Source: Yuukianura sp. NJ FZ-2021
Taxonomy: Eukaryota
Length of the DNA stretch: 64,000 bases
Direction of reading: 5' to 3'
NCBI GenBank assembly: GCA_046563655.1
Contig: CM102286.1
Location: forward strand, 6,262,001 to 6,326,000
A model generated the notes under the pieces. The model was not told the origin of the DNA. It searched no databases and saw only the letters and a program-made list of their open reading frames with translations. Each line of letters begins with the position of its first letter. Position 1 is the first letter of the stretch. Positions 3,001 to 61,872 of the stretch are shown piece after piece. A program made the translations under genes and the position numbers.

Positions 3001-6000
3001 CCGATAGTCACGGGGTCAAAGATATTAGTCTAACCAAGCCTATTCATAAGGTAAAGAAAAGAAACGAGGTCAACTCATGACTGTCATGACGCTCTTGTCG
3101 TGTCAATGACACAAAAGCCAAAGATGACAGGCGGTCAGTCCATGACCAACTCCAGCAGATCACTTTCTCAAACCATGCTGGATCTTGATCTTACATCTTC
3201 TATCACAAAGTAATCCCTGTGACTCATCCTCACTCGATTCCTCCAGGGACAAACCAAGATCAAGCGGAGATTGGATATTGCCATTGCCAAATTGAAATTC
3301 ATATCAGCTCAACCTCAACTTCTATCTTATTTGTATTCTCTCCAGTCTCCAGTATCTCCGCCCTCGATAAGGTGATCACACAAACATATCTCCCGGTGAT
3401 GACGGCCACGCAAGGTCAAGGTGACCAAATCCTTGAAAAAAACATAATGGACTGACTTTGACATTGATGACGGTCTAACATATTCCATTCAAAACTCCAC
3501 AGGAAGCTAACCCAACTATGACTGGACTTGGAACCAGGGAAGCATAGAAACACTTTCCTCCACAAGTAAAATTGAGTCGACTCCGAACTCCGGAATATAA
3601 AATACAGTAAGATTTCGAATAAGTAGAGGGGAAGTATCTTGGCTTGGCAGCATCTGTGCATATACTGCAACGAAAACTGCTAGTTACATGCTGCATCCAA
3701 AGTACACTGTTCCATGCAACAAGGGTTACACATGACAGTGTCAATAGAGATAAAAGGAAGAGACACAGGGACTTTTGACATTGTCCCAGAGGAAATGTTT
3801 CACTTCCATATTTCATGTCAAGTCAAGTCTCAAGTTCAACAATCCGTTCTCCAATAACCAAAGAAGGCAAGACTATGGAAGATGAAGGATTTGGAGAGAA
3901 GATGACGTTCTTGGCATCGTCATACACCCGTAGCTCGTAACTTTATCACCTAAAGTCAACCAGGAGGAAACAGAAAAAAAAAGAAACAATGACATAGGGA
4001 CTATACAGCTCAGTCATCTTCGTCTGAGACTTCGACTCCGGAGGTTTATTTCAAACGACCAAAAAAAAAACAACTTGTCCAATCAACGTCTGAACAATGT
4101 CCGCGTCACTGACCACGAAATGGTCTCGTTTCTACTAAATAAAACACGAAACCATCAAAGTTCACCAGCACAAATACAAATCGCCTTGACTCCGTAAGAA
4201 ACTACATCTTCCAGGCGGGATTCTTTAATCCTTAAGGATTCTGGAAGGAGAGACTTAATAACTGTAGAGAAATTCCCTTCTTCGGAGAGATTTACAAGAT
4301 GAATTAGTAAAGCTAAAATGGCAGGAGGCTCAACGTAAACAGACAGCTATGGATTCCAGAACGCTTAGATTCATTCATTCATTATCTAAATTTTACGCTT
4401 CTTCCTATAGTCATGAAACGCTTAAACTTCTAAGAAGACTAACGCTTTAAAGTACTCTTTCGAAGCACAAAATTCAAAATAGAATTCAACTTTAAGCAAC
4501 AAAGTTAACGGGAAGCGCAGAAGCGACTCAAGAGCAAATGAGCCAAACTTTCAAATTTTTCAACCTCAAAACAGCGTTCAACAAACCGCGACGTCGTTTA
4601 CAGTGAGCCATTTCCTGATAAATTTATGAAAAAACACCGTACTTAATTCACTTCCAATTCCTTATAGCCCATTTCCAAAAATGTTATGTTATTCATGGAA
4701 GAAATTCCAAATAACTTAACATATCAGGACTTTCTCCATTAAAAACAATTTAAGCCTAACAAATCTTATAATGAGATACTTAAGGGCCCCTGAAACAAAA
4801 CAAAACAAAAAACTTGAACTTATTTTTTATTCTCCAGATTTATTCGGTTGGTGTTCGTACTGAATGGAATTGAAGGGCCCTTAGTAGTGCGGTAGCAAAA
4901 CCAAGGGCCCTTAATTCCACCATCTCCAGCTACTTTTCAAATCTTCACACCACCAAAGTTAAAGTTCATGGCAAAAAGAGCTCCAAAACTCCCAAATCTT
5001 CACAAGAAAAGTTAGTAAAACCCTAACCTAAAAAGCAAAGAAGCTCTTTCAGTTCAGAGCGCAACAATTCACCCCTTCCAACTTTTTACTTTTTGTTCAC
5101 ACAAAAGGGCTTTGACAGAGAGCCAAAAAAAAGTTTAGGGGGGACTTGAATAAAACCAGATGTGGTCAGGAGCCTTCGACTCCTCACAAGAAGCATCCTC
5201 ACCAAAAGATGGATGAATGTTATTAACGAATGCAACTTCGTCAAACATGCTTTTCAGTTACAAAATACTACCGTAAATTTCCAAATAAGTACCCCGTTCC
5301 GATAATACCGTCTACTTATTAGTACCTCTCTCCCAAATGCAGAGGAAAAAATTAGTAACTCGGGCCACAATTCGGAAAATCTACGGTGGTACTATGTTAT
5401 TCCGCATCCCTACTTAAGGGCCCCCCTTCACACCCTTAATAAATTCAACTTTACAAAGCTCATTTAAACATCACTTCAGCCACATTTCATTTCAAAACAC
5501 AAAAATTCAACAAAGATGAGAAATTAATTCCGAGAAACATTTTTCCCACTACACAGAAATGACCTTCTAAAATTCAATTCAATTCCTTCAAACAACTTTC
5601 TCCCCCACCTCCATCTCTTTGCTTATATCCTTAGAATATCCCAACCCGTTCCATAACCTAACTTTAGCATTTTATGCTTCGCCGAAGGTGCAGAAACTTT
5701 CACCTCCTTTTCACAAATTCAATTTGAACAAGAAGAAAAACCAAAATTCAGGAGGTTGTGTGCTTTTGTGCTCCGTTCGACGACTCCAGTTCCATTCCAA
5801 GCCCCAGTGCACAATAATATGATTTTCCAGTCCGACTAACCGTGGAGAAAGGAAATAAACATGACTAAACGACCGACCTATAACACTGAAAGAGGTCATT
5901 TCACCTTCAGTTGGAGCTCCAACAATCGTCTCTAGTTATTCCACACGGCTTTCCAACAACAAAACCTAGCCCAACATAACCTAACCCATACGTCCTAACG

Positions 6001-9000
6001 GCCCATTCCAGAACTAATATCAACCTACAATTCAGCTTCTTACGACCTCACAAAAGTTAGCGTAACGAACCCTTGACAGCATGGAACCATTAACAGACAA
6101 CTTCTGCCTTACTTGTCAGTCAAGGCAAACGCACTGCTGGCACACAAAGTCCATTCCGACTAATTTTCCAGCAGTGCTAAACAAGTACTTCAGGGTTCAG
6201 GGACCAAATGGGGGTCAAGGGTTAGCTAGTTTAAGTTAGGCAGTAAGGTTAGGGTAGGCTAAGGGCAATTGGAAACCAGTAGAACAAATACTTTGAGTTT
6301 CACCCATGGGCACTCCCATTTACAGTAATGGTTCTCAAATGCGACTCCAATAAATCACTAGAATTGTAAGCATTAGGAAGCTCATTACGTAAAAAGGTAT
6401 ATAACAAAGTAGCGGCAGCATCTGACCAAAACCTATACAAAACATCTTCGCCTGAACTAGCCTAACTTCTCCTAAAAACGGAAATTTTTCAAGATGTCTT
6501 CGACTGTCGTCGCCCATTTCTTCGTAATTTTTTTTTTCTTGTCTTTTCCAAAAATATTTCTGTAATACTACACAGTGCTATGTACGAGAATTCGGGCGAA
6601 CAAAAAACTCCGAAAACGTGAAAAACTTTTCTTCCGACTGATAAAAAACTACAAAATTTTCCGGTTTAATCCCTATGAGGAGATAGGCTTACTTCAGAAA
6701 AACTATTCTCCTTGTTGCGGAATGAGAGGTTTTACTGTAATTGCAAATGTAATTACCAGAAAAGCTTCGCGTAAATCAGTAAATCTTTTACACTGCCTCT
6801 TTCGGTGATCTCACGGGATTTCGGGCTCTTTCCCGCCGAAACTTTTTAAGCTCCACATTCGATCTTCTGCAAAAACGAAACCTTGCATAGTAAAGTTATC
6901 TCCCCACGTAATCTAAAGTGGCTGAAATTCAGAGGAGGGTGATTTGAATGAGCCTGAATATGGTCCATTGTGTTCTTCTAGCCTTAAAAGAGGTGGGTGG
7001 TAGGTCATAAAAATACTTTCATGAATTCATCTTTTTAAGTCTTCCTGGACCAAAGTCCTTTAGTAGGACTAAGGATCACTCTTAAGGATATACTAGAATA
7101 TTTATTCATCTTTTCTCTACACCAAAGTCCCTGGTTCCTACTTTAGAAAATTGAAGATGAGGACCTCAGCCTCCCAAAGAATTGGAACCTTCTTCCCATC
7201 ATTAAGATTTATATCATCCCAGCAGATAAATCAGCTCAAAATATGTCCTTGTACAACTAAAACGCTGGCGTTACAACCTCCTCCACTCCTTCCGTTTCAA
7301 CTCCACTGCCAACCTAAGCACATTTTACATGCATTTCTGAACAACTTTTTCTAAGTTATAGGAATTTCTCACCGTAGTCCGAGAGAGGGGACTTAGGTGA
7401 AGTTAAGGACCATACAGATGTCGGGGATGATAAAAAGTAGACCAAAGTGAAAGTCCACTTTTCCATTTTGCGTGTGCTGAAATGAACAGTCTCCTGCCGA
7501 CTTAACCGACTGCGTGATACACTTCCTGCTATCCTCCTCAAGTACTTTTGGACAACCACGAGTTATGCTTCCAAGCATTTTCCACCAGGTTCCATCGCAG
7601 CATCCAGGAAAGTTCTTCCAAATCTAAAAATGAGATGCTGGGATGCTGAGAATAGGAAAATGGAGTTGCGGATAAGATAAAGCACATATTTCAAGTGGCC
7701 TCCTCCACTTTCTTCCTTTCCAAAGTCCCGTAAGGCTGTCAAGGCCAGTTAGTATGGAAAGGCGTTGTACGCCATCGCCATCTTGGATGTGGGTGGTGTC
7801 ATGGCAAGATGGCCGTGATGGGGATGTTGGGCAAGATGGTGGGTGGGTGTTGGACAAGATGGAGGGGTCGGCCATCTTGGGTGTTGTGTCATGTTAGGGC
7901 AGTGGCGGTTTGTTGCTGGTCGTTGGGCTTTTTGGTTTCAGTGGGTTCTGATGGTTCTGGGCTGTACTTTCTCCAGCACAACTGTCTTGTTTTTTTGGGT
8001 GGGGGGGGGTATCATCTCCCCTGATTTTCATTTATGATTAGATCCACCTTTTGTAGCTTAATTCAGATCTGTCATTTAGGCTTGGCTGGGCAAAACGGTG
8101 GAGTGGATGGCGGGGTTGTGAAGGTTCTGTTCTTTGGCTGTTTGGATTGAAATAAATTCAAACAGTCTGATATGGTGGTCAATGCGTTCGGTTTTAGTTT
8201 TTTTTACTTGGTGTGGTTCTTTGGTGTGAATGGAGGGGCTCGTTTTTACTGTTTGGATCCAACAGGACTTGTTCCTGGAAAAAAGATTTGAAAAAAAAGC
8301 TTTTGTTGATGGAGTTGGATTGTTTCACTGTAATTTTGTTAGGGGGGATACGATCCTTTTTTTTAAGTTTCTTAGAGTAAATGATTAGAGAACCTGATGT
8401 TTTTATTTTGTTGTAAATGAAACCAAGTTGAAAAAACTGTGGTTTAAAAAACAACACTGTAACTAACCCTAGCGGAAGTTCTTTCTAGAAAAAAAAGGAG
8501 TTCGGAGTTCATCGTGAAGGGTAAAGGTTCACTTTGAATGTTATGGGCATCGGATTGTGGTGTGTCTCACTCGACTGGGATTTGGTACATGTATTGGTAC
8601 TTTCCTGATGTGTTACGGAAGGCCAGGAATGGTAGAGTTTTAAGAATGCGGCGGTATTTTTCTGCATTGGAAAGGTAACGTAGGTGCAGAGATTGAGCTT
8701 TCTTTTATTCTTTTAGTGGTCTATTTCTGAGGTGCAATGTATTTTGTAGCGAAATTTGCCCAGTAAAGCTCGATGCTGTGGAAAACTACTTTTGGAGTCA
8801 AAATACGACCCTAGAGGAGCCGTACATGACCGACGTCAGAGCAAGGCTGCGTGGCGACGATGGCGCCAACTTAGACCACGTCACGTGTGTCTTACAAGAG
8901 CCATCCGCGCTCTGTCTGACCAATACATCGTTATTTATTGGGGGTTTCGGGTCAAGGTTCGGCATTCATAAGGAATCGATGGACATACTTTCAATGAATC

Positions 9001-12000
9001 GTCTCATAGTTGTTGATCAAAACCAAGGCGGTGGTAAATTTTGGTAAATGTTTCTCAGACGGTCAATTTTTTTGTCAAGCCAGTTTTTGTTTCTTTCTTT
9101 TCTTCCTAACCTAACCTAAAAATTACGTATTCTTCAAACAAACTTTTTGAAGCAATTCCAAAACTGAACAAAAACCGCTTTCATCTCAATGTAGGGACGG
9201 TTCACACAGCGCTTTCTTGCATGCAGTATGAATGTTCCGGAATTGGAAATATTGCGTAACTACTGTTCATTTTTTTTTACTGTGCAGTTGTTGATTGTAA
9301 TTTTTTGGGTGTCGCTCTTAGAAACTGCTTAGGTTGAAGTGATTCAAACAGATCCACATGTATCCAGAAATTCAACCAGTACGTGTACATTTATTTCTAT
9401 CCGTATTTCTATTTCGTATTTCTATTCGTATTTCGTAAAAGTATTTCAAATCGAAATTGAGAGGGCATAAGTTTACTCTAGTTCTGAATCTGAAGAGCTA
9501 GCGCTGTCGCTATCCGACTCCGAACTGTCTTCCCCTAGTTGAATTATAATCGGATTGATAGGATTGTGAACAAACGTTTCGGCTAATTTTATTATGTTTC
9601 GTCCGTGCTATGTAAGCTTAGAATCATGACTAAGGTTGACAATCATTTGCTTTTCAGCTGAACTTTTAGCTTTCGGCATTTTGCAAATCAAATTACTCCG
9701 AAACCAGAATCGAATTTAAAGAAAGAAGGATTTTCTAAAGTTCAAAAATATTTTGATGATAAGTTTTCCTTAAGTCAACCTTACACGTTTCTAGGGGTGA
9801 CGCTTGAAAAATTACAATCAACAACTGCACAGTAAAAAAATGAACAGTAACACTGTGTCGGTAAGCTAATTAAGCTAAACTTAATAAGACAAGGTGAATC
9901 AAAACCATCGTCACCTTCACGATAATGGTAGATTTGGGTAGATTGCATACCTCGGAAACCATAGTTGTAACTTTTTCGTGAATAATTTTTGAAATTATTA
10001 AGAATTCACACTAAAATTTCATCGTTCGTGGAAACCGTGCTTAAATTTGCGATAAAGCGAAGGTTAGGGTTAACCTAACCTAAACTAACCTCTGCCGCTT
10101 TAATGCGCTTTGGATTTGTCTCAAAACTTTGTATGAAAAAATCCATAATATCCACATAAGTTAAACAGAACGAAACGCTCGCTCACTCTGTGTTCGCAAC
10201 ACAATTCGCAGCATGCAATCAACATAATTCGTAGCTTCCGCACGATTGTTGCACAAGAGTTTCTTCGCATCGGAAGGCTCGAAGACCTTGCAGGAGCTTG
10301 GTGACATCATAGTCACGCGCGGATATCACCAGGCTTTCAATGTCTCCGAAAATGTGGCTGCTGCCGTTTGCTTCGCAAATGAAAACTGGATTCAACGTGG
10401 GATTTAAGCTGGCAAATGTCGTTGCAAGGCGCATACGAAGTGAAACTTCAAATTACTTTGTTGAATATATTAAAAAATGTCCAAGGCCCGTAGGCGGGGG
10501 GAACTAGAGCTCCGGCTCTATCTTACTAACACCATGGACGGGCGCGGGCTCGAGTCCCGGTGTCGCCGACACGAAAGTCGTATTGCCAAGTTTGCGTTAA
10601 CAACTTAATTGGTGTCGTTAATCTCTCACATAATTTCATAATCTCTCAGGGCTGTCTCTGGCAAATGTCGGCAGTTTGTTTCCTTCTGCTGACTTGGGTA
10701 GTGGACGGTTGGCGGCATACGATGGGCTAAGCGAAAAGGACGGGTGGCGGAGCACGTGCGGCAAGCGGAGGGAATGGAGCGGAGGTGTGGTGGGATTGAG
10801 TTGGAAGTGGAGATGCTGTGGAGGTTTGGCGGCATACGATGGATTAAGCGGAGCAGCGGGAGGGAGCGGTGGCGGAGCGCGTGCGGTAAGCGGAGGGAAT
10901 GGAGTGGAGGTGTGGTGGGATTGAGTTGGAATTGGAGATGTAGTGGAGGTTTGGCGGCTAGAGATTTGCTAAGTGCTGCGGAAGGCAATGTTACCCACAG
11001 GAGTGGTAGTTAGACCAGTGAATAGCCAAGGTGACTTTTCCATCATTTAATCACCTTAACAGGTTGCGTAATACCTCATCTGTTTACCAAAACAAATAAA
11101 ATAACAAAAAAAACTAGTACCATTAGTACCAATTCTAAAACAGCTTGGTACCCGTCAAGGTAAATAGAACACTACTATAAGCTACCTGTACGAATTTCTA
11201 TTTTTGAAATCGTTGCTGATTCAGTGAGGCATTCAAGCTCTTAATTCAGAAAATGGGTAACTGTTCTTTCCCTATCTGCACCGTCACTCAATTGCTTAGT
11301 GGAATAATTGAAAAAAAAAGAGTTTCCAAATGTCGAATTGAAGCTCATTCTAAAATTCGTTCGTGTGCGGACGTTAATCAGAATGCGACCCCTGGATTTG
11401 AAAATTGAAACTGCCAAATCAAGACACAAACTCCGAAAAATTCAGTTATTCTTTCAGCCCATTTTGTTTTGCACTGGAAAAATTTCAAGCAATAACAATT
11501 TAAGAATTTTTTCTCAAAAAAATCGGAAGATTACGCTTACAATATTGCGGCAACGATTTCCTGGCGATGTGAAAAAATTTTTTTTGGACCTAACCAAATT
11601 CTTAAGAGATACAAAATTAACAAACCTTGGTGAATATCGTGAGAAGTGGGTGAGTGAGAACGGTGAGGCACAAATGTGTTCTATCATTCAAGTGTTAACT
11701 CGGAATGTGTTAACATGTGGAACCACGTGAAGTCCTAGGTGGACCTAGGCGTCAGTGCGGAAGTCGTATTTCTACAAAGCGGAGTGTCGGTTACGTACTC
11801 TGATCAGTTTGTTTTAGGAGTTTGAACTGCCAACAAGAATAAAATGTTTGGTTCCGGTGGACTCGTCCCTCTCAATATCTCGCAGGCGGCGTTACCTCTG
11901 GACACAGAGCCAGAGGAGCGGGTTGTAAAAGTGGCAGCAAAGCTGCATTGTTCGTACTGTCCGAAGAGCTTTACAAGAAAAGACACTTTGAAAAGACACG

Positions 12001-15000
12001 AGCAAAATTTTCATAAGCAAACCGAAGAATCTGAATCGCACGACGAAGAACAGAGCGACGAGGAACCTGCGTCTTCAAGCACTGAGAGTGTTGACTCGGA
12101 CGAAGAAGTGTCAGAGGCCGAATCTGCGCCAGATAATCCGGAATTGACACGTGAAAGCATTGAACTTCTGCAGCATTTACTTGCAAATGCGAAGAACGGA
12201 GTGCAAAAAGTGACAAAGGATATACTGGTTAACATAATAGAGGGTGCCGATCCTTAGAAGTTAAAACCAAGCAGCTTTATTGGAATTCAAAGCCCTGGCT
12301 TCCACTAGTAAGTTAAAAACAAACGTATCGTACGACCTAATCTGTTCAAATGTGTAATTCTTGCATGACTTAATTTTCTCACACAAGGTGGTAGCATCTC
12401 TTACATTATTATACACAATCCTACACAAGACATCATTTCAAATTTTTTGGATCGGGCGTGAAGTACGCACGAGATGAGAGATTCCAATTCTCGTAACTCG
12501 TAAAACCCGTGCCAACTTGAGATGCTGAAAACAAGTTCAATTACAGCAAACGGACTCAACCTATCCGCGGACCCGAAACAGGATTTTCACGTTTTTCGCA
12601 ATATATTCAAGCGATATGAACAGAAACTTTTTTTTAATTTCTTAGATGAAAAGTAACATTATCGTTCTGAGGTTCTGTTAACATGAAATATCTCTAGTTT
12701 TTGAAAATATTTAAAAAATTTAAGCTGCTCTATAATAATTTACTACTTTCTGTCTACTAATTTCACAGGGAGCCTCTAATTCTTAATATTCTTTCCGATG
12801 CATGAAATAAAGGAGCCAGAAATTTGTTATTCAATTTATGAACGTATATTTTTTTTTCCCCGCAATACTAACTGCAAAATCAAAAGCATGCGAGATTCTG
12901 ATTCTCTACAAGTGACATTTCTATCTACCGCCAAAATTTTCCATAACAGAACAGAGGGACGATCTTTCGAAGTGAGATTCGCTGGTCACAAATGATGCAA
13001 CTAAACTGACCTTCCCTCCCATTCTCCAAAACACAAATCTTAGCAAAATGCCTTTAAAAAATATTCCTTAATGTTTGAACCCTTTCAAACCATGTTCCCT
13101 GGAAATTCATTTATAAATTACAATCAAGTTAGTTACACAATATACTTAAGGAAAACTTATCATCAAAATATTTTTGAACTTTAGAAAATCCTTCTTTCTT
13201 TAAATTCGATTCTGGTTTCGGAGTAATTTGATTTGCAAAATGCCGAAAGCTAAAAGTTCAGCTGAAAAGCAAATGATTGTCAACCTTAGTCATGATTCTA
13301 AGCTTACATAGCACGGACGAAACATAATAAAATTAGCCGAAACGTTTGTTCACAATCCTATTAATCCGATTATAATTCAACTAGGTAAAGACAGTTCGGA
13401 CTCGAATAGCGACAGCGCTAGCTCTTCAGATTCAGAACTAGAGTAAACTTATGCCCTCTCAATTTCGATTTGAAATACTTTTACGAAATACGAATAGAAA
13501 TACCAAATAGAAATACGGATAGAAATAAATGTACACGTACTGGTTGAATTTCTGGATACATGTGGATCTGTTTGAATCACTTCAACCTAAGCAGTTTCTA
13601 AGAGCGACACCCAAAAAATTACAATCAACAACTGCACAGTAAAAAAAATGAACAGTAGTTACGCAATATTTCCAATTCCGGAACATTCATACTGCATGCA
13701 AGAAAGCGCTGTGTGAACCGTCCCTACATTGAGATGAAAGCGGTTTTTGTTCAGTTTTGGAATTGCTTCAAAAAGTTTGTTTGAAGAATACGTAATTTTT
13801 AGGTTAGGTTAGGAAGAAAAGAAAGAAACAAAAACTGGCTTGACAAAAAAATTGACCGTCTGAGAAACATTTACCAAAATTTACCACCGCCTTGGTTTTG
13901 ATCAACAACTATGAGACGATTCATTGAAAGTATGTCCATCGATTCCTTATGAATGCCGAACCTTGACCCGAAACCCCCAATAAATAACGATGTATTGGTC
14001 AGACAGAGCGCGGATGGCTCTTGTAAGACACACGTGACGTGGTCTAAGTTGGCGCCATCGTCGCCACGCAGCCTTGCTCTGACGTCGGTCATGTACGGCT
14101 CCTCTAGGGTCGTATCTTGACTCCAAAAGTAGTTTTCCACAGCATCGAGCTTTACTGGGCAAATTTCGCTACAAAATACATTGCACCTCAGAAATAGACC
14201 ACTAAAAGAATAAAAGAAAGCTCAATCTCTGCACCTACGTTACCTTTCCAATGCAGAAAAATACCGCCGCATTCTTAAAACTCTACCATTCCTGGCCTTC
14301 CGTAACACATCAGGAAAGTACCAATACATGTACCAAATCCCAGTCGAGTGAGACACACCACAATCCGATGCCCATAACATTCAAAGTGAACCTTTACCCT
14401 TCACGATGAACTCCGAACTCCTTTTTTTTCTAGAAAGAACTTCCGCTAGGGTTAGTTACAGTGTTGTTTTTTAAACCACAGTTTTTTCAACTTGGTTTCA
14501 TTTACAACAAAATAAAAACATCAGGTTCTCTAATCATTTACTCTAAGAAACTTAAAAAAAGGATCGTATCCCCCCTAACAAAATTACAGTGAAACAATCC
14601 AACTCCATCAACAAAAGCTTTTTTTTCAAATCTTTTTTCCAGGAACAAGTCCTGTTGGATCCAAACAGTAAAAACGAGCCCCCCCCCCTCCATTCACACC
14701 AAAGAACCACACCAAGTAAAAAAAACTAAAACCGAACGCATTGACCACCATATCAGACTGTTTGAATTTATTTCAATCCAAACAGCCAAAGAACAGAACC
14801 TTCACAACCCCGCCATCCACTCCACCGTTTTGCCCAGCCAAGCCTAAATGACAGATCTGAATTAAGCTACAAAAGGTGGATCTAATCATAAATGAAAATC
14901 AGGGGAGATGATACCCCCCCCCCCAAAAAAAACAAGACAGTTGTGCTGGAGAAAGTACAGCCCAGAACCATCAGAACCCACTGAAACCAAAAAGCCCAAC

Positions 15001-18000
15001 GACCAGCAACAAACCGCCACTGCCCTAACATGACACAACACCCAAGATGGCCGACCCCTCCATCTTGTCCAACACCCACCCACCATCTTGCCCAACATCC
15101 CCATCACGGCCATCTTGCCATGACACCACCCACATCCAAGATGGCGGTGGCGTACAACGCCTTTCCATACTAACTAAGGCCCCAGTAGTAAGTGCACAGC
15201 GACATTTTTCCTCTCCATAAATGTTACCCCAAGGGGTATACCTTCCCCAGCGGACACATACAGCCCTGAAATCACCTAAGAAGCAGCAGTGCACATCTTC
15301 CGCAAAAGGAAATTCCTCTCTCCACCTTCACCAGAGGAATGCTGTAGAATTGAATCATGCTTTAATCCTAAAACCATACCAAGATAATCCTAACCTAAAA
15401 ATCCAATTCTAAACCTTTTTAGAAAGGAGAGCAAGTGAAAAGAAGCACTTTCAGAATAGAGCCAGATTAGACAGTCACTTTGGGAGACTTAAAAATGTCT
15501 CACAGGGATCAGTCATGACCTTTCCCATACATTCTACTTTATCCTCCCTCAAAACAATTACCATTACCGTCACCATTTCTATCCTCAAATTATGAGGCCC
15601 AAGAACCAACTACGACCTTCAAAAATCAATACCGTGCAGTCCAACACCTCAATTTCGAAAAACGTTAAAAAAGAACCGACAAATATCGTCGTAAAGATAT
15701 AGAAAACCGCAAATTTTTTTAAACTTCTTTCAAATTCAGCAAATTCTGGGAATCAATAATTTTACAAATTTTTCGACTTAATTTTTTTTTCCTTTAACAG
15801 AGGCAAAGTGGTGAGCTTTCTCGTGAATTTTTTTTAACGAAAACTAACTACATACAGCAGTCGTACAACAAAATATAAAATAAACGCATTTGTTTTTAAA
15901 AATTGGAAGTAGGTTCGAAAAATTAACTACGTGGAAATTTTTAAGTGAGAGTAATTTACTTTTTTTTAAATGTTGTTTTTCCTGCACTGGGTGAAAGCAC
16001 AAATCATGCAAGTTCATGCCAAGTCGACTCGACTCGTAAAAACGCATAGTCGAACTCGAAATTATTCAGTAAAACCGTATTTCTAATTAAATTGAATACT
16101 AATAAAATTTAATTCAGATTTCCATAAGTCATATCGTTCGAAACAGAACTCAAATCCTTCGTCACTTCCTGCTTCAAAATCATAAACTTTTATTATCCTC
16201 AAGTGCATCTTTCAATTAAAAAATCAGATGCATCAACCCATTCATCTTCCCGCAACAAAAGTAGTGCCGGATTAACAAAGAATAGGTTAATTAGTACTAA
16301 ATAAATTATTATATAAAAATCCCATTCATCAATCCACACCCTTCAACCGTCAACCATTGAAGTGGACTGTGGACATTTAAAAACCCATGCTGACCCACTG
16401 CACACTGCACTCCATCTTAACTTATCCCCTCCACCACTTCATCTCTCCATCTTTCTCAAAATCCAAGTACCAGTCAACATGGATTCAGCGTCTGCGCTCC
16501 AACTTCAAACTTTTCATCTCTCACAAAGTACAACACTGAAATAAATGAGCCCATTGTTAACTCACTCTCCATGTACATCCACTGCCAGCACTCCAAGCAC
16601 AAGGCCTAATTACACGCAAGTGTCTGGACACACAACCAACTATAAATTTCAACTTACTTCTTATCCAAACCAAAATGGCACAAAATTAGACAGGGACGAA
16701 GTGCTTGGCAGTTAACCTAGCAGCACAACAACTCAAATTATTCAACGAATACTCCCAGCGCAATTCATTATACTAGACGGAACCCGTAATGCTTACGCAT
16801 CACGAAATAATTTGAAGCACTTTGACATGAAGGAAGGATGATTTGGAACATTTTGTCAAAAATCCGCTAGCTTTTTCGTTGACCCGAGTATGACCTAGTG
16901 CTTCAAGTTATTTGGTGATGCGTAAGCATCACGGGTTCCGTCTAGTTGAATCGAAAATGTTATTGTCGAGGCTGGGGGGGCAAGCCCCCCCAGACCCCCC
17001 CCCCCATCTTCCTTCTGACTTGAGTTGAGATTGAGATGGAATTTTTGGAAGTCTTTGCTTGGAGGAGTAAATGTAAAAGGGACACCTCAGGATCGTTCCA
17101 CTCTTCCAAGCAGAGAGTTTTCTCTACCTATAGTTTGCATTAGCATGGGATTTCACGTTGTGACGGAGCAACGCTCGTCAATTAGAGTATGATTCCTTCC
17201 CACTCCCAACAGTCGACCATTATTTTTATGTCCACACAACTTTCACCCAAACTTGTTCCAAAATTTCCTAAAACTAAAACTGGACTCAAATTAATAAAAA
17301 TTTCATTCGGAATCGGATTCTTCCCCTCTTCCTTCCTCCAGTTTACTTTGCGTGCTTCCCAGTTTTTACTTTAGTTCACCAAAAGCTCACCGGAAGTAGC
17401 TCACTTTTTTTAAGACTCCCACCAACCATTGTCTTTCAAGTTTCAGCATTCAATTCAAGTTTTTTAGCTAAAAGGAAAGGGGAGTTCCCTCTTTGATTCA
17501 AAATTGTTAGCCTGAGTGCTCATCCTTCACTGTTAATTCCCAACCAAAGAACAATCTCCTGTCTTCATCAACTTCGCAATTAGACCTCATTTAAAATTAA
17601 AACCTCAACAACATTTTGATGATGGCGGCAAAAAACAAAACCAGTTCAAAAGTACAAAAAATCACTAAAAACAAAAAACTTTTCCCAAGTTTAACGTTAA
17701 GTATCACACTAATCACCCTGCACAAAGTATTCCCTACGCCTAGCTTAGCAGTTTAGACAGAAATTACTCTCATCTCATCACTGTCGCCTCTCACTCCGTT
17801 GATGGCTTCAAGTGTGACACTTGATACAACACCCACGGAAAAACATAAGACACAAAAAAATTGTCACTTTAGTTACAAGTTCAGCAGCATCAGCATCGGA
17901 AAGAGATGCCGAGAAAACCAGGAGAGACTGTTAAAAACTTTTTTTTTCAAGAGGAGAATGTTATCCATCTAAGGCTCTCAGCACGGCAGGATGCACAAAA

Positions 18001-27228: not shown

Positions 27229-29831
27229 CCTCTTGAACCCTAAATACGACTTTAGTCGTATTTTGTTTGCGTGCTCAGGGGCCTGAATACGACTATAGTC
27301 GTACTTTCTGTGCGTGCTCAGGGGCCTGAATACGACTAAAGTCGTATTTTCTGTGCGTGCTCAGGGGCCTGAATACGACTTTAGTCGTATTCTGTTTCCG
27401 TGCTCAGGAGCCGGACTACGACTATTGTCGTATTTTTTTTCCGTTTTTAAAATAAAAAAAGAAACCTTTTGTGAAATGTTATTGGGACGGATTCCTATGG
27501 AAAATGAATTGAAAATCTTTTTATAAAAGAAGAAAATTTTGAAAAAATTGAAAAATCAATATTTTTTTAAATTTTGACAACGTAACAACGTATTCCAACG
27601 TAATTCGAACTTCTTGGCCAAAATTCAAATTATAAAAAATATTCGAAGTGAAAAAGTGTATTCTTGGACACATATTTCAGCTTTGTTTGACCCAAAAAAA
27701 TAATTAGTCTCAACTTTTCTTACATTTCTTGTGATGATGTCATATAGGAAGGTCCACATTAAAAGTATACAATAGAATTGATTATTTACTTCAACAGTTA
27801 AAAATAATTAAATATTCGAAAATAATGTAATAATGATGATACAATAGGCGTTATAAACAAATATAACCACAAAATATATCTATGCCAATATGTTTAAGTA
27901 TAAACAATTAAATAAATAAAATATAGAATGAAATGAATAGTAAATAAAACGAATTAAATAAATATAAAATATTTTAGAAATATATATATTTATATACATT
28001 TTATTAATTAATTAATTTTATTATTAAATTTTATAAAATAAGTTAAGGTAATAATAACTTTGAAAATAATATTAATAGAATAAAAAAAGATCCTACGATA
28101 AGTTATTACTAAAGATACTTTACTATTATATTATATAAAAAATTATTATTTACTATTACTTCATTATTGCCTTATTATTTTATTATTAATATTATTATTA
28201 CATAGTACTATTACATATTATATGCTTATTATACATTATTTTATTTCTTCCACCTAGATCGAATTAAGTAGAAGTATCCATTTCTATCCATTTTATCCAG
28301 CCCTTTCGTCCGGACGAAACCGGAATAAATGTATTCTCCATTGCATATCCACTGAGCGAAGCGTCAAAAAAGTGGATATCCACCAACTGAATATTAGTGT
28401 GCTCGCATGGATAAAATATTTTTTCCATGCACTAGATGAGGTGCAAGTATCTGGAAGTATCAATTTCTATCCAGTCATTTCGTCCGGATAAAACTGGATG
28501 AAATACATTATCCACTGAACAAAACGTTTATTAACTTATTATTACAAAATTAATTCTTATATTATTATTTATAACTATTATTAATTAATTATTATTATTA
28601 ATGAAAATTAATTATTAATATTAATAAAAATTAATTATTATTAATAATTATTATAAAAAAATTTAAAATTACAACATAATTGAAAAAACAAACTTTCTAT
28701 TCACCGTTAAATCTAAAAAAATATACAAATAATACACACCCGGCGGGTAAAGCTCCGCTCCTTTGGATTCATTCATTTCGTCCATTTCTTCCACTGGATA
28801 TCCAGTCGTAGATGAAATGTCGAACAAGTGGATATCCGCCAATACTGATGTTTGTGATATGTTTCAGTGAAAATTTACTGAAATTTAATATTTTAATTAA
28901 TTAATTAATTAATTAAAAAATTAACTAACTGCTTTATTAGCATTAATTATTATTAAATAATTAATTATTATTTTATTGTGAATTAGTCAATCAATTTCTT
29001 AAATTTTGTTTTATTTGAATGAAAAATCTCAATATAATATATAATATAATTATACAGTGTAACGTTTGTGATATATATCAATGAAAATTTAGTAAAATTT
29101 TTATTTTATTTAATTTATTTATTTACTAATTAATTATTTTATTACTATGAATTATTATTACAGAATTTCAAAAATTCCAAAATATTGTTGTATTTTTTTC
29201 AAATGTCATCACACCTTCTAACTTACTAGCTTTTCACTTTTTGGAAAAAAGGGTATTTTCAAAAATGCAGAATTTCGCTGAGCTGAGCAGCCTCGCCATA
29301 TTCAATACTTATGTTAGCATATGATATTATTACAATCAAAAATGTTGCACTCGTCATGAAAAGTTGAGAAAATGGTTTTTGGTTGTCAAAAAAGTGTAAA
29401 ATGCCCAGAAATAAATTTTCTAACAGTAATTTGAATTTTGCTTAAAAAGGACGAATTACTTCGGGAAACACTTTTTCGGTTTTTTTTTAAATTCTTGAAT
29501 TTTTTTTTCAAAAAAAATTAGGGGTGTATGTACATGTACTAAGGCAATTGACAAGAAACTCCAAAATTTTTGTATCATATTCCAAAAAAAAATTGGAATT
29601 TGTGTCAAACTAATCCGGCACCAACATTATGTTAGATTGTGTATTTAATTTTGGGTCAAATATGTGAGAAAATATCGGGGCATAAATCCGGCCACTTGTG
29701 TCACCCCACAAAAAAAATGGCGTCGCCCTGGAATCGTAACAATATTTTAATTTAGTCAGCCGTGGTAACCAATGGAAATTAAAAGAGGGCCGAAAAACAA
29801 ACACCTCGAAAATAATTCAGGGTTCAAGAGG
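27229..29831. mobile_element. Non-autonomous piggyBac-type element nested in the pogo
   Basis: TTAA at 27225-27228 and 29832-29835, 13-bp perfect TIR CCTCTTGAACCCT, very AT-rich non-coding interior. Confidence 0.8.
27239..27435 (+). repeat. Subterminal tandem array of five ~43-bp units, each with the palindrome TACGACT(W)(W)AGTCGTA
   Basis: Unit is approximately CCTGAATACGACTATAGTCGTATTTTCTGTGCGTGCTCAGGGG and starts within the left TIR; the fifth copy is degenerate. Confidence 0.9.
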
Positions 29832-29944
29832 TTAATAGCGCGAAAACCTGTAGTTTAAAGTTAAGAACTGAGATTTCACACCTGGTTTCTTACCCTTGCG
29901 GTCAAGTTAATTTCTACATCAGTATAACTCTTAAGTTTTTAACG

Positions 29945-30435
29945 ATGGATGGACCAAAGGTCACTCGCAAATCGTACACGGCAGAATTTAAGCTTCTGGT
30001 CTGTCGGAGAGCCGAGGCAGTTGGCAATCGTCCTGCTGCTCGTGAATTCTCAATTGATGAGCGCAGTATTCGCCTGTGGAGGAAATCGCAAGACAGTCTT
30101 TCCAAAATAAAGAAAAAGACTGGTCAGAAAAGTTGGAACTTTTTCGCGCTTATGTGGCTGAAAAGAAGTGTCTGGGTTCAATCTCCACAAAAAATATTCT
30201 CAACATGGACGAAGTTCCGTGTCAATTTGATTTGCCTGACACCAGAACCATCGCTGAAACGGGTCAAAAGGATGTCACATTGGTTACCACTGGCTCTGAG
30301 AAAAAAAGTTTCACGGTAATCTTGGCCGTAGGTGCTGAAGGGGAGAAATTGGTGGGACGGATTTGCTCAATTGACACTAGATTAGAACAGTTTAACGTAG
30401 AGTCTAGTACGTTTTCACACAATTCCTACTCTTGA
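29945..30435 (+). pseudogene. pogo transposase remnant: Brinker-type DNA-binding N-terminus joined out of frame to the start of a DDE_1 domain
   Basis: RKSYTAEFKLLVCRRAEAVGNRPAAREFSIDERSIRLWRK (BrkDBD-like HTH), then in another frame NILNMDEVPCQFDLP...TTGSEKKSFTVILAVGAEGEKL (first catalytic Asp). The CENP-B HTH and the rest of the DDE domain are missing. Confidence 0.85.
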
Positions 30436-52680: not shown

Positions 52681-53778
52681 ATGAATTCAGCTTGCCGAAG
52701 AGGATTATTCCAATTCTTGACGCCGTTTGTGAAGAATCACTTTACCGGTGAATCACTCCTGGTGAAAGGAAGGGGAATCTCGTACTCAGCGTCGTTAAAC
52801 ATGCCAATCAAGGTAACTATTCAAACACTTACAATGTGTTAATTGCAAATTACGAATAAGCAGAGCTCTTTTTCATTTTAAATTGATCTTATTTTTAGGT
52901 AGGAGAGAAGCTTCCAAATGTTGACCTTTTCGAAGGAAACCCAGGAGGGAAAGTGAACCTTGGCGATCTTGTCAAGGGGAAGAAAGTCGTCATCTTCGGA
53001 GTACCCGGTGAGCAATTCTTATTTTATCAAAGACAAAGATTTACTTTATCAAAGACAAAGATCCTACCGCAGAAAACAATTAATTTTTTATAAATATTTT
53101 TTTCTGCTTCTTAGGTGCATTTACTCCGACTTGTTCCAAGGTAAACAAACGAGCTTGGGCTATGTAGCCTCCTTTCTCGCGGATAACAATTTCTTACCTG
53201 TTTCCCGTAAATATTTAACGTTTGACGATTTACAGACACATCTTCCTGGATATGTTGATCAAGCTGGAGAAATCCGCGCAAAAGGAATTTCGGAAATTGT
53301 CTGTGTCTCGGTCAACGATCCTTTCGTAATGGCTGCCTGGGGAGAACAGAATAAAGCTGACGGAAAGGTAACATTATTTGCCTTACCGCCAAGTTGGCCT
53401 GAATCGTTTTGTTATACCGAATAGTTGTATTAATTTTTTCTTAATTTTTGGTTTGAAGGTGCGAATGCTTGCTGATACGACAGCCGAATTTACGAAGGCT
53501 ATTGATGTAGCTCTGGACTTGACGGGACCCCTTGGAGGCATTCGATCGAAACGGTTTGCTATGCTGGTAAGAAACGTGTTTGGTTAACACCTAAGCAAAC
53601 AGTACTCCACCTAAACATTGATTTTCTTTCTCTACGTCTACAAAATATTTCCGAATTGATCAATTTTTCAATAAAAACTTTCCAGGTCGATGATGGCGTG
53701 GTGAAAGCAATGGAGGTGGAACCTGACGGAACTGGAGCTACATGCTCTCTTTCAAACAACTTCTTGAAGAAGTTGTAA
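52681..53778 (+). CDS. Prx5: Peroxiredoxin 5 (atypical 2-Cys); exons 52681-52812, 52899-53007, 53115-53140, 53236-53367, 53459-53566, 53686-53778. 199 aa with presequence, 159 aa from the second ATG at 52801.
   Basis: GVPGAFTPTCSKTHLPGY (peroxidatic Cys), CVSVNDPFVMAAW, RSKRFAML and EPDGTGATCS (resolving Cys). 40-aa in-frame upstream extension resembles a mitochondrial presequence. C-terminus is KKL. Confidence 0.95.
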
Positions 53779-54206: not shown

Positions 54207-57200
54207 TTAGACAATTGAGCTTATGTATTGTGAATCAAATGAAGCGTAAGTATTTTTGAATATCTTTTTGTACTCAAGAAGTGCTTCTTGATTTCTTTCT
54301 GTTTTGTCATCATAGGCAGATCGTTTCTTTGGATCCGAAAGAATTTCATACGCCTCCCGAATTTCCTGGAACAACTTCGTCTCAATCGTCTTCACTTTGT
54401 CGGATTCTGTAAAATGTTTATCTAACAAGAAAAAATCCAAAATGGAGATTAGTCCCCAGCATCAAACAACTTCAAGCTTGTTGCACTTGAACCATCATCT
54501 TATGATCTTCCACGTGGGGAGCAACCAGCGGGAACGTAAAAGTTGAACGACTTACCCGGATGATGTCTCAAGGACTTTCTCCTGAATGCTCTTTTGATGT
54601 CATTTTGAGAAAGTGTTCGTGCAACTCCTAGGATTTTGTAGTAATCCTTAGCGTTGGAATTAGCAATCTGCTCCATCTTCTCTACAACTTTCAGCAGAAC
54701 GACAATATTCGTGTCCTCTGGAGCATAACTTTGAGCAATCTTGAAACAAAAGGTTCGTTAGCACATTCTAATTTTACTTTTTTATGTACATTTTCAAGAA
54801 GTACTAAGCTTTTGTTAACCCTCAGTTCGGCGAAAGCCTTGTCAAATAAATCCTTCTCCACCAGGAGCATCGCACGGTGGACTCTGGGGCGTACAAATGG
54901 AATATTTTCTTTGTTCCGAATTGAACGTTTTGATCGTCTGGTTTCTTTTCCATTTAGAATCGATGGTGAATACTTCCTGGAAGAACTTCCTTTGTCCACA
55001 GTTGGAATTTCTTGGCTGTGGCTACAACTTGCACTACAACCTGCCATTCCATTTGTGCCCTAAGAATGATACCGGAAAACTTCAGTTATATCAATTACGA
55101 ATCAAGAAGCTCAATTCAATGGAAGAAAGTTCTCACCAAATGATTTTCCGGAAACTCGAGGTAGACGAGGAGCTTCTGCATTTCACGCCCATGTCGAATC
55201 ACAACGTAGATTCCAAAGACTTTGAATAAGACACGTACAACATTGTAGGTAACATAGAAAACGGAGAGAAAGACGTATGGAAGAAAAAATCGGATGCAGA
55301 GAATGATGAGGGAGACTAGGGCAATGCGGGACCTGAATTAAATTTTCAAGCTTCTTAATTGTTTTGGAAACTTGAAATTTAAAATTTCCTTACCAAATGC
55401 GACAGGCAGCTCGTTCGTTTTCAGGAATGGCTTTCTAAAATGTCAGAAGGGAAAAGCAACTTCTAAAAGTTAGGAATTTGTGGAGAAAGTTTCGTAATTT
55501 GAGGTCACAGAGGTCTTTTGTTTGCTGTTTGCGTGGTGTCTCACTTGATACATAGAGAACATCGCAAACAAAAGTGAAAGCAGAAGGAGAAACTTTGACT
55601 TTAAACTTTGCCTTGAGCACTGAACCTTGAACACGTTCGATATCTCACGCTGGTTACAAGTGTAAGGTTACACTGGAAACGAGCCCGAGAAAGCTACAGG
55701 CTGGCATGTTACTCCTGCCCAATTACTTTCAAATTAACTTACGAGGACTGGCTCTTGGCCGTTTTTCGAAATCTGAAATTCTGAAACACGGAAGTGGTTT
55801 CTCATTGTTCAAAAACACTTTTGGCACCATTCCCGTTTCACAACGCGAAAAAAAAAGAATTCGACCCGGGGTGGGATTGAACACCTGTCGGGCGAAACGG
55901 CGAAAGTGACCTTTTTCGGGGTGGGGACTCTATCCCCTGGACCAAAACAAAGACCACAGAGCTGGTCCCTAGAAAATGAGTTTTTCATGCGCACAGGAAG
56001 GGGGAAAGTGAAAGTCAAAGAAATTTTTTTCAAATTAAAAGTTAACCGATTAAAATTAACAACGACACTAATTGCTCTTAAGAGGAGCATTCTACAACAA
56101 ACAAATTACGATCTTTCCCCCGTTTTTCGCAAATACTCAAGGTTTATCTAATTTAATATCCCAGTTAAAAAAAAACAAAGTGACTTACTTTCGTCTAAAA
56201 TCGTAACAATTTTAAATTTTGTTCAATTTTTGAAAGTTAACATGTTTTTAGAATATTGGCACTCTGTAATGTGATATTCAAAAAAGAAACATGAAAAACA
56301 AAGTATCTTATTACAATGACTGCATCGGATGAAACGACTTTCTTTTTGACATTTGTTGCAAATCGGTGAGTCTCCTTTCTTCCAGTGAAAGCAAATCTGC
56401 TCAACTGAAAAGAAATTCTCCTTGTCGCTGGATTCCAGAAATCCTGCAGCTACAAAAGAGTAGCGTATCATAGGGTTAAAAACTATGATTTCTCCAAATT
56501 GCAAGTTTTGATTTCGAAGAAAGCGAAGCACATCCATTATGTTGAAGCGTCGAAAGGCTATACTTTGGGTGAGAATCCGCGAATTTGACAATTCGTACTC
56601 TCTTCAAGTGGAATTTCGTTGACTTCCATCTCTTGCTCTATAGCAAACGATTCGTCCCGTTCATTGATGTCTAAAAAGTTTAATTTTAAATTGTTGTCAG
56701 ACACTTTCACCTTATGTGAAATAATATGAAAAATGTACAGTGTGTACAAGTTTTTGGAGTAAAAAGTTTAAATTCCAGATTCTGATGTCTTGATGTACCA
56801 TGAATCGTCAAGTCTTCTTCTTCGGCTAAAACGAAATCATCCAGCATTTGCAAGAACAATTTAAACAGCTTTCTTGCAAATAAGTTCTGTACTTTCACTA
56901 TGATTGGGAATATCGTGTCCTTTGAACTCCTTTTCTACAATCCGAACAAATTTTCTTGCGATTGTAATAGGATTAACCTCTGACGACTCCATATTTGTGA
57001 AATACTTTGACTTTCACTTTAATAATGAGAGGAACTACGTCGGTTTTACGAAAAAAAAACGTTTTTCTTGTACCTTCCATTTTTCCCTGCAGGTGTGCAT
57101 CATTAATTACTTTTTTACCAACGGGAACAGCTAATTAGGTTTTTGTCCAGAGGATAGAGCTCCCACCCCGAAAAAGGTCACTTTCGCCGTTTCGCCCGAT

Positions 57201-58133
57201 ATGGGTTCAATCCCACCCCGGGTCGAATTCTTTTTTTTTCGCGTTGTGAAACGGGAATAGTGCTAAAAGTGTTTTTGGACAATGAGAAACCACTTCCGGG
57301 TTTCAGAATTTCAGATTTCGAAAAACGGCCAAAAGCCAGTCCTCGTTAGTTCAGTAGACACGAACTTTGTAAATATACGAACAACCTAGTAGATCAAAAG
57401 TTATGTTCATAGTTTCGTTTCACTTTTGCCCTACGAAATTCTCCATGTTCGAGGCGTTCTTGGATTAAGGGAAAACCGAAAATGGAATTTGTTCAAATAT
57501 TTGACACATTTTTCCCCAAATGAGGAATTTTTTGAAACACTCTGAAAAACTTTGGAAAAATTCTTTTTTTAGCACACAAAGACTCTCTGTAATTCTGCAA
57601 TTGAATTTTTAAAAAATGGGTTCGACAACGTTAAGATCGATGATTGGCCAAATCTACTTTCTGGTGGTAATTTTTTGTCAATTCTAACAACTTCTAATTT
57701 TTTTTTAATTCTCAGTACCCTGCTTACCCCATTGCATGATTTGCACAAGAAAATTGAGCTGGATACTTGGAGAAAGAATCCAAAAAAGTAAATGAGCGTC
57801 AAAAACGGTGACAATAGGAAGTCGTACACTCGGGGATCAAGGACCTTGATGACTTCGTAACTAAGGACCATCTCGTCTTCCGGAATCTCCCTTGACTTGT
57901 GTCCATACTTGGGATTTGGAAAGAAGATCGATACCACTGCATAAAACAAATCACAGACTCTCCATAGCTGGAACAACAAAAAAAAACAATGACAGCTCGA
58001 CGTGACCTCTTGACCTTTCAGTTTTAGTGTTACGCCAAACGCCTTTGTTTTATCTTACCAGGTCAATTGCCGCTAGGACTTGGCACTTCCTCCTGTACCT
58101 AATTGGCGGTACATTTCGTTGCATGGAACTCAT
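54207..58133 (-). CDS. J-domain (DnaJ class C) protein with hydrophobic N-terminal segments and a TPR-like repeat; exons 58059-58133, 57767-57967, 55545-55649, 55394-55434, 55137-55332, 54820-55059, 54556-54739, 54207-54421 (418 aa)
   Basis: DYYKILGVARTLSQNDIKRAFRRKSLRHHP|DKH...FQEIREAYEILSDPKKRSAYD is a J-domain with an intact HPD motif. All eight exons join in frame using GT-AG sites (1257 nt). CAACATG start. The J-domain exons are secure; the five upstream exons are a manual model. Confidence 0.7.
55742..57345 (-). mobile_element. Deleted DNA transposon with ~207-bp TIRs, probably IS630-Tc1-mariner superfamily, in an intron of the J-domain gene
   Basis: 55742-~55948 matches the reverse complement of ~57139-57345 (CGAGGACTGGCT...). 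Flanked by TTA on both sides. Minus-strand coding remnant 56223-56591 ends in a Cys/His cluster (CNKC...CSHC...LCFSCF...YH). Confidence 0.75.
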
Positions 58134-60618: not shown

Positions 60619-61872
60619 ATGAGTTCATCGTCAAAGTCATCCAAGACCAGCCAGCGTGCTGACGAATTTGTGACCAGCTTTGGAAGGGCGAGAGCCTTGA
60701 TTCTAAAACGGATTGAAAATATGCAGCCAGGAGACGAGAATACACAAGACATCAACACAAAATTGACCGTACTATCAAATGACATCCAGGAAATGAGTTC
60801 ATCTCTTCACGATGCCACACTTTTCCTACCTGCGTTTTCCATCAAGGTACCTAAATTTTGCTTACATTAACATACATCTTTGAATTATGGTACGTAATTC
60901 ATTTTCTGTTGGTATTTTGTAGATGCGTCAGGAGGAAATCAGGGAGTTAGAGAAGGCGCTGAAAGCAAAGGAAGAATTGCTTTTTCCAAAGAAGAAGTTC
61001 GGTTTCAAATCAAAACTCCAAGAACCAGCAGTAGAATCTACTAAAACCGAAACGGGGGAAAACTCGGCGACACTCAAAGGAGACTCAGACGCACCATCAG
61101 ACCAAGCTAAAGCTAATCACGCAGTAATATCAAAAAATTGTTTATCGTGATTTTGCAATAGTGTAATATCTCAATCAATTTTCAATATTTAGGTCAGTGG
61201 GAACTATCTTACAGTTGAAAATCTGTCCAATGAGCTACTTACTCATGAAGATTCCGAACTGAACAGGAACGACGTTCTTGTCCGAAATCTTGACAAATGT
61301 ACCTTGAATCTATTTGGAAGTCCTTCCACACTGCGTTTGGTCAACCTTACGGAATGCAAACTCTTATGTAAGTTTGGTATCGTGTTTGCATACTGATAAC
61401 GTTTTCAACATTTTGTTTTCATTTTAGGTGGACCAGTGTTTACTTCAATCTTTATCGAAGACTGTCGAAATTGCACCTTCTTCCTTTGCTGTCAACAATT
61501 ACGAGTCCACTCTTCAGTCGATTTGGACATATACTTGCGCGTGCGCTCTCGAGCTGTTATTGAAGACTGTTCAAAAATTCGTTTCGGTCCTTACAACTGG
61601 GAACACCCAAAATCCGCTGAGCTCCATGCCGCAGCTGAAATTGATGAAACTCTTGAAAGGTATTAACCTTGGAAAGACGTCAGCATTGACTTGATACCCG
61701 TAATTTCGCTTAACTACGGCGGTATTTTACTTCCAGATTCGATTGTGTTGATGACTTCAACTGGCTTGCATTTACTACACCCTCCCCCAATTGGGTTATT
61801 ATCCCGCCTGGAGAAAGAATTGAGCCGTCTCTGAAAACTGATGCGATTCCGAATGCGAGTACTCTATCGTAA
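60619..61872 (+). CDS. TBCC: Tubulin-specific chaperone C; exons 60619-60846, 60923-61123, 61193-61367, 61428-61659, 61737-61872 (323 aa)
   Basis: LHDATLFLPAFSIK...PKKKFGFK N-terminal domain. CGPVFTSIFIEDC...CQQLRVH...RAVIEDCSKIRFGPYNW...VDDFNWLA...SPNW C-CAP/cofactor C domain. Consistent splice phases. Confidence 0.93.

Follow-up and report, generated by a model that had tools for sequence, protein, structure and literature searches.

A 64,000-nt stretch of the Yuukianura sp. NJ FZ-2021 assembly (GCA_046563655.1, contig CM102286.1, positions 6,262,001–6,326,000, forward strand; hereafter the window, to which all coordinates refer) contains a 7,429-bp mobile element that carries the broken remains of a putative JmjC histone demethylase gene of the KDM4 family. 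We consider it probable that the element, at 7747–15175, is a non-autonomous DNA transposon moved by a Maverick-type integrase, and that its KDM4-family JmjC sequence is a dead passenger that had diverged for a long time before it broke.

On the plus strand, coding-like sequence is distributed over three pieces in three frames (8697–9047, 10169–10216, and 10228–10440). The first reads ...LDAVENYFWSQNTTLEEPYMTD...FGIHKESMDILSMNRL...GGGKFW and then a stop; the JmjC N-terminal half within it (8769–9044) includes the tyrosine of EPYMTD, the H-K-E triplet at 8967–8975, the asparagine of SMNRL, and the lysine of GGGKFW. The middle piece, NETLAHSVFATQFAAC (10169–10216), differs in frame from the piece that follows, which reads ...ARLLHK...GDIIVTRGYHQAFN...FANENWIQRGI, a stop, and AGKCRCK. 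The JmjC C-terminal half (10240–10440) accordingly includes LLHK and GYHQAFN, the histidine of which lies at 10327–10329. All ten KDM4A-type functional positions are kept: the Fe ligands (H, E, H), the 2-oxoglutarate contacts (Y, N, K), and the zinc ligands (C, H, C, C), with roles that we take to be those of the KDM4A literature. An earlier reading of this DNA from its letters (the original prediction) had reconstructed a transposon-borne, KDM4-like demethylase here, and its reading of the residues can be verified in detail: CAT-AAG-GAA at 8967–8975, CAC at 10327–10329, and TAA at 10405–10407 stand where it placed them, EPYMTD, SMNRL, and GGGKFW are in frame, and NETLAHSVFATQFAAC and LLHK are present.

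Comparison with PDB sequences identifies the relic as a divergent member of the KDM4 family. With X in place of the TAA, a 71-aa C-terminal piece had matches to 56 distinct PDB sequences (E ≤ 1); the top 37 of these 56 rows were KDM4A–D, Rph1, or one KDM4-like "2-oxoglutarate oxygenase" (E 1.3e-6 to 4.4e-4), led by yeast Rph1 (E 1.3e-6) and with KDM4D at E 2.4e-5, and KDM5 did not appear below an E of about 0.1. The alignment continues beyond the stop (AGKCRCK, against AGKCHCI in Rph1), and the TAA at 10405 is therefore a nonsense change within former coding sequence. A 59-aa C-terminal piece without this read-through also returned KDM4D as its top match (E 0.013, aligned at KDM4D 252–293). 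A 116-aa N-terminal piece matched six PDB sequences at E ≤ 10, of which five are KDM4B or KDM4C. Its top match (E 0.58, 13.8 bits) covers KDM4B 116–202, lies upstream of the C-terminal one (252–303) in colinear order, and has, by arithmetic, an E of about 1e-4 when the comparison is restricted to the 37 KDM4-type sequences. The predicted KDM4-family identity is thus upheld by the C-terminal match, the colinear N-terminal match, and the kept catalytic positions.

The middle piece, searched as 21 aa with NETLAH and too short for a test of its own, had no match among PDB sequences, nor did a possible continuation in another frame (10383–10490). JmjN was found neither in three read-through frames of 7747–8750 (E ≤ 1) nor in six frames of 7747–13145, and PHD and Tudor domains were absent from the read-through frames of the element. 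The original prediction had also proposed a first exon (8538–8674, plus strand) and a frame-keeping GT..AG intron of 75 nt (8675–8749); with this segment added, the match to KDM4B dropped from 13.8 to 12.4 bits, and neither the exon nor the intron has homology support.

The relic is strongly diverged from cellular KDM4, as had been claimed. Identities within the alignments are approximately 33% for the N-terminal half against KDM4B, and 43% against KDM4D and 36% against Rph1 for the C-terminal half. A phmmer search with a 169-aa N-terminal read-through recovered none of 1,835,955,588 representative proteins at E ≤ 0.001; this exhaustive search covered the N-terminal read-through, and the C-terminal piece, which is the stronger query, was searched by word index. 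Word-index searches among longer proteins yielded no relatives of either half, and no relatives of the relic were found among metagenome contigs or viral contigs. At 33–43% identity, and with no representative protein matching its N-terminal half at this threshold, the relic is not a fresh copy of a canonical KDM4.

The predicted gene is broken at several points, and the decay of this copy that the original prediction described is evident. The N-terminal half ends at a TAA (9045–9047) directly after GGGKFW; no phase-compatible GT donor joins 9044 to 10169, and approximately ten KDM4 residues are unaccounted for across 9045–10168. This 1.1-kb gap includes a nested MITE (miniature inverted-repeat transposable element) of 585 bp (9263–9847), with inverted ends of approximately 77 nt and TA on both sides. 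Short runs of TTAGG/CCTAA type occur at 9108–9122 and 10063–10090, inside the gap and on both sides of the MITE. Downstream, a frameshift lies between 10216 and 10240, a TAG interrupts the first of the two frames at 10232–10234, the nonsense TAA follows at 10405, and homology ends near 10440, beside a high-copy repeat. A 13-nt direct repeat, CTGGCAAATGTCG, stands at 10409–10421 and 10658–10670 (two matches, against 0.04 expected) and brackets approximately 236 nt (10422–10657). In the public contigs described below, depth in the bin 10208–10641 reaches 6,336 in run X1, as compared with approximately 200 in the flanks, and behind 10581 each of the four runs has contigs with loose ends. The segment 10422–10657 may be an insertion resembling a short interspersed nuclear element, located right where the JmjC relic ends; at 10409–10670, no tRNA was identified by ARAGORN. 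As it reads in this copy, the relic is unable to make an enzyme, and the putative gene is dead.

For the carrier, contigs of four public runs (X1–X4) were compared with window positions 5000–18000. These runs represent two studies and two organism labels (A and B); three runs derive from one sample, and X3 is organism B. The element has ends 5'-AGTTAGT...ACTAACT-3' and is flanked by a 6-bp target-site duplication (TSD), AAGGCC, at 7741–7746 and 15176–15181. In all four runs, contigs join 7740 to 15176, skipping 7,435 bases, and six letters at this joint are compatible with both sides. On its shorter side the joint has 203, 24, 255, and 255 letters in X1–X4, respectively, and in X4 a contig of 9,391 nt extends across the empty site. 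In X3 the site is empty, yet contigs of that run cover 8263–8960 (17 differences), 10971–11545, and 12379–13211 of the element, and one continues past the end of the element, at 15175, into a different flank. The element is therefore a mobile one, present or absent at this site and found elsewhere in organism B, and the description of the gene as transposon-borne is backed by data from outside the window.

Self-comparison shows that the element is bounded by long terminal inverted repeats (TIRs), of 2,029 bp on the left (7747–9775, plus strand) and 2,032 bp on the right (13144–15175, minus strand). These are 99.1% identical over 2,035 columns (blastn), differing in 18 columns that comprise 10 substitutions and four indel events, and one stretch of 920 nt contains a single difference. 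The sole uninterrupted gene-like open reading frame (ORF) of the element lies in its core (11844–12257, plus strand, 137 codons) and encodes one C2H2 zinc finger (zf-C2H2, E 8.5e-5, below cut-off) with an acidic, serine-rich tail; a word-index search among proteins of 75–240 residues identified no relatives. This ORF was considered as the C-terminus of an Rph1-like JmjC–zinc finger protein and rejected, given an in-frame TGA (11823–11825) just before its ATG and 1.4 kb of repeats between the JmjC relic and the ORF. Two to three tandem copies of a G-rich unit of approximately 120–125 nt, 85–89% alike, are also present within the element at 10701–10958.

The original prediction regarded the element as a Maverick, and its form agrees with this: the 6-bp TSD AAGGCC, the 2,029- and 2,032-bp TIRs, and the ends AGTTAGT...ACTAACT are all Maverick-like. 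Excerpts of PMC8097293 give Mavericks a 6-bp TSD and end motifs of (AGT)2//(ACT)2 or (AG)3//(CT)3, and the available text of a preprint on insect polintons describes gene-bearing TIRs of approximately 2 kb (10.1101/2025.02.07.637071). The gene content does not agree. Polintons encode pDNAP and integrase "by definition", in the words of a passage of PMC5499653, whereas no polymerase, integrase, capsid, ATPase, or protease family was detected among the 130 ORFs of at least 75 aa in the whole window, and no transposase family inside the element. Six read-through frames of 7747–13145 returned only zf-C2H2 and Sybindin (0.07), and six further frames returned no matches. The ends, long TIRs, and TSD of a Maverick are thus present, and no remnant of pPolB, integrase, capsid, ATPase, or protease was recognized in ORFs or read-through frames; by the usual definition the element is therefore no Maverick, and it is at most a non-autonomous derivative that would need a mover in trans. 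That mover would most likely be the integrase of an autonomous element of Maverick/Polinton type, because the ends and the duplication size alone point to this superfamily.

The position of the relic relative to the TIRs bears on its history. Its N-terminal half lies inside the left TIR, together with most of the nested MITE, and is thus doubled; its C-terminal half is single and lies in the unique core. A mirror of the N-terminal half is present at 13874–14167 on the minus strand (tblastn, 97 of 98 residues identical; the sole difference is A versus G at 8802), with no C-terminal half behind it. The expectation that the gene would lie between the TIRs therefore fails for its first half. The inner edge of the left TIR, at 9775, falls inside the MITE, and the present TIRs therefore postdate the MITE insertion. 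A plausible sequence of events begins with a gene that would have diverged over a long period as a working enzyme, either in a host genome, from which it was later captured as genomic DNA, or on ancestors of the element that carried it as cargo, and would then have broken recently. The left 2 kb, with the first half of the gene and the MITE, would have been copied in inverted orientation onto the right end, yielding secondary 2-kb repeats, and the TSD and empty site suggest that the element transposed after this inverted duplication. An element that moved with its gene already disrupted would not have depended on that gene in cis, and the relic today would be a passenger.

The part of this history that concerns a once-working enzyme draws on residues and stops. 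Only one in-frame stop occurs in approximately 176 homologous codons, as compared with 3.7–4.4 expected in a crude, substitution-only simulation at 40–50% residue change (P of one stop or fewer, 0.12–0.05). Together, the kept functional positions and the few stops weakly suggest that most of the divergence may have built up while the gene still worked.

Several explanations of the locus differ from a mobile element with a long-diverged, dead passenger. A chance likeness to JmjC would accommodate the Pfam scores below cut-off and the N-terminal E of 0.58, but it is scarcely credible given the C-terminal E of 1.3e-6, two independent and colinear best matches within one family, and a match that runs across the stop. 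It is likewise very improbable that there is no transposon at all, and that an inverted segmental duplication or an assembly artefact (a palindromic long-read chimera) surrounds a host pseudogene. The near identity of the arms, including the 920-nt stretch with one difference, and the absence of filled junctions among the contig matches listed are what such an artefact would produce; an exact empty site with a 6-bp duplication in four of four runs from two studies is not, nor are an element end that adjoins another flank in organism B and an X3 contig (12379–13211) that runs past 13144, where the right arm has its inner edge. A more substantial alternative, though a doubtful one, is passive capture, in which part of a host KDM4 paralogue was taken up as genomic DNA (Pack-type transduplication) and no protein was ever made in the element. 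Both JmjN and approximately the first 115 KDM4 residues are missing from the relic, which also has intron-like gaps and adjoins unrelated material (the C2H2 ORF, tandem repeats, and a high-copy repeat), all of which would fit; a recent capture should closely resemble a cellular gene, however, and none is close in the protein libraries, which may miss the host's own proteins.

It is unlikely that the JmjC gene is instead a selected, long-standing Maverick cargo, in which a JmjC-only KDM4 strips H3K9me3 as a counter-silencing factor and intact copies exist elsewhere. Such cargo would explain why no catalytic, cosubstrate, or zinc position has been lost at 33–43% identity with a single in-frame stop, and why the N-terminal half has no close cellular relative among 1.84 billion representatives. 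It would also have parallels, one of which involves mael, a gene of the PIWI-interacting RNA pathway. According to the available text of the preprint cited above (10.1101/2025.02.07.637071), insect polintons have been linked to this gene. JmjC-only, intron-bearing KDM4-like genes of endogenized giant viruses, as described in excerpts of PMC11244446, provide a further precedent. Against this stand the lack of any intact or other copy, besides the mirror half, in searches of proteins, metagenome contigs, and viral contigs; the movement of the element after the gene was split and partially duplicated, so that the gene was not needed in cis; the absence of any Maverick core gene beside the JmjC sequence in ORF and frame searches of the element; and a contig depth over the unique core that does not exceed the flanks, a weak measure by which a large family is not indicated. 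The bolder proposal of a Maverick/Polinton lineage in arthropods with a functional JmjC-only KDM4 as its anti-silencing cargo, of which the present copy would be a recent wreck and intact copies would survive between the same AGT...ACT ends, appears more unlikely still.

We favor a non-autonomous, Maverick-mobilized element with a dead and previously long-diverged KDM4-family passenger, while a number of observations weigh against that account. The Pfam JmjC model (PF02373), which had been suggested as a check, matched the C-terminal piece only, at 14.6–15.1 bits (15.1 bits being E 0.031) and thus below the gathering score of 24, and it did not match the N-terminal piece; taken alone, the N-terminal half falls short of significance (E 0.58–1.1), and alternative frames across it are also partly open. 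The stop simulation is weak (P 0.05–0.12) and ignores indels. No contig bridging a filled junction is among the matches listed, and contigs cannot separate the two arms. The Maverick assignment uses the ends and TSD size only, and another superfamily in which a 6-bp TSD and such ends occur together is not known to us. Finally, "passenger" and "once functional" are both inferred from this one copy.

The remainder of the window resembles an animal genome, with few long ORFs and split exons. An ORF family search identified exons of a redoxin-like gene (52957–53421, below cut-off), DnaJ (two exons, 54210–54757, minus strand), and tubulin cofactor C (TBCC_N and TBCC, 60613–61663); these exons of ordinary cellular genes mark the window as host chromosome. 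TTAGG-like repeats, which we take to be the arthropod telomere unit, were found in the window. Plus-strand GC skew is negative throughout 12000–44000 (−0.17 to −0.35 in most 2-kb windows). The regions 27239–27453 and 29816–30316 contain a 43-bp tandem repeat in four to five copies and a Brinker DNA-binding domain in a 167-aa frame (E 2.1e-7, above cut-off), which is surrounded by an AT-rich stretch (GC 0.27 at 28–30 kb). At 55736–57351, inverted repeats of 213 nt (93.9%) enclose an ORF with the C-terminal part of a Tc5 transposase (56226–56603, minus strand; E 2.7e-5, below cut-off), and this segment is, judging from these remains, a decayed pogo/Tc5-like DNA transposon. Outside the element, each of the four runs has contigs that skip 420 bp at 16772–17191 (joint 16771 to 17192); depth there is 17,310 in X1, against approximately 200 in the flanks, and an inverted repeat of 62 nt lies within the segment. 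A high-copy, MITE-like repeat seems to form a second insertion here that those contigs lack. Rfam and tRNA scans of 7000–17500 returned only a mir-268 match within this segment, below threshold (28.3 bits against 47), and no tRNA.

H3K9me3 is described as a main transposon-silencing mark in excerpts of a review (PMC9406493), and a transposon with its own H3K9me3 eraser would, if real, represent direct counter-defense. The present locus is, as it reads, a dead relic and a lead in the search for working copies, rather than evidence of an active anti-silencing gene. Exact ends, TSD, a present/absent insertion, and a protein signature make the genome and its relatives screenable for intact copies. 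The original prediction knew of no Maverick-encoded JmjC demethylase, and this stands insofar as full-text searches of the literature, with subscription journals and supplements not covered, yielded no report of a JmjC gene carried by a Maverick or by any other transposon. KDM4-like cargo as such has a precedent, in that literature so far only in endogenized giant viruses of a protist, Amoebidium (PMC11244446, in the excerpts available).

Among known enzymes, the KDM4/JMJD2/JHDM3 group (human KDM4A–D and yeast Rph1) provides the best and only significant matches to the relic, with HxE...H, Y/N/K, and C/H/CxC at aligned places; the relic differs from this group in its identity of approximately 33–43%, the lack of detected JmjN, PHD, or Tudor domains, its broken frame, and its location inside a mobile element. 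With Maverick/Polinton elements, the carrier shares a 6-bp TSD, long TIRs, AGT...ACT ends, and genes doubled inside TIRs of approximately 2 kb, but pPolB, integrase, capsid, ATPase, and protease are all missing from it, and it is about half the usual size. Pack-MULEs and Helitrons are DNA transposons that capture genes, and VANC of VANDAL elements and the TET/JBP genes of KDZ transposons are factors that act on the elements' own chromatin; all of these resemble the present case in that a cellular-type gene rides in a DNA transposon, while they differ from it in transposon superfamily and enzyme, the relic here being known from sequence alone. The closest precedent, likened here by description rather than by sequence, is found in the endogenized giant viruses of Amoebidium. 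According to excerpts of Sarre et al. (2024; PMC11244446), the domain most enriched in these viruses is that of divergent KDM4-like genes that bear introns and are JmjC-only. There the carrier is a giant virus insertion in a protist, and many copies are intact and some transcribed, as compared with a single broken copy on a 7.4-kb TIR element in an arthropod-like genome; both, as far as those excerpts describe the viral genes, present a divergent, multi-exon KDM4 paralogue reduced to its JmjC part and carried on a genomic parasite.

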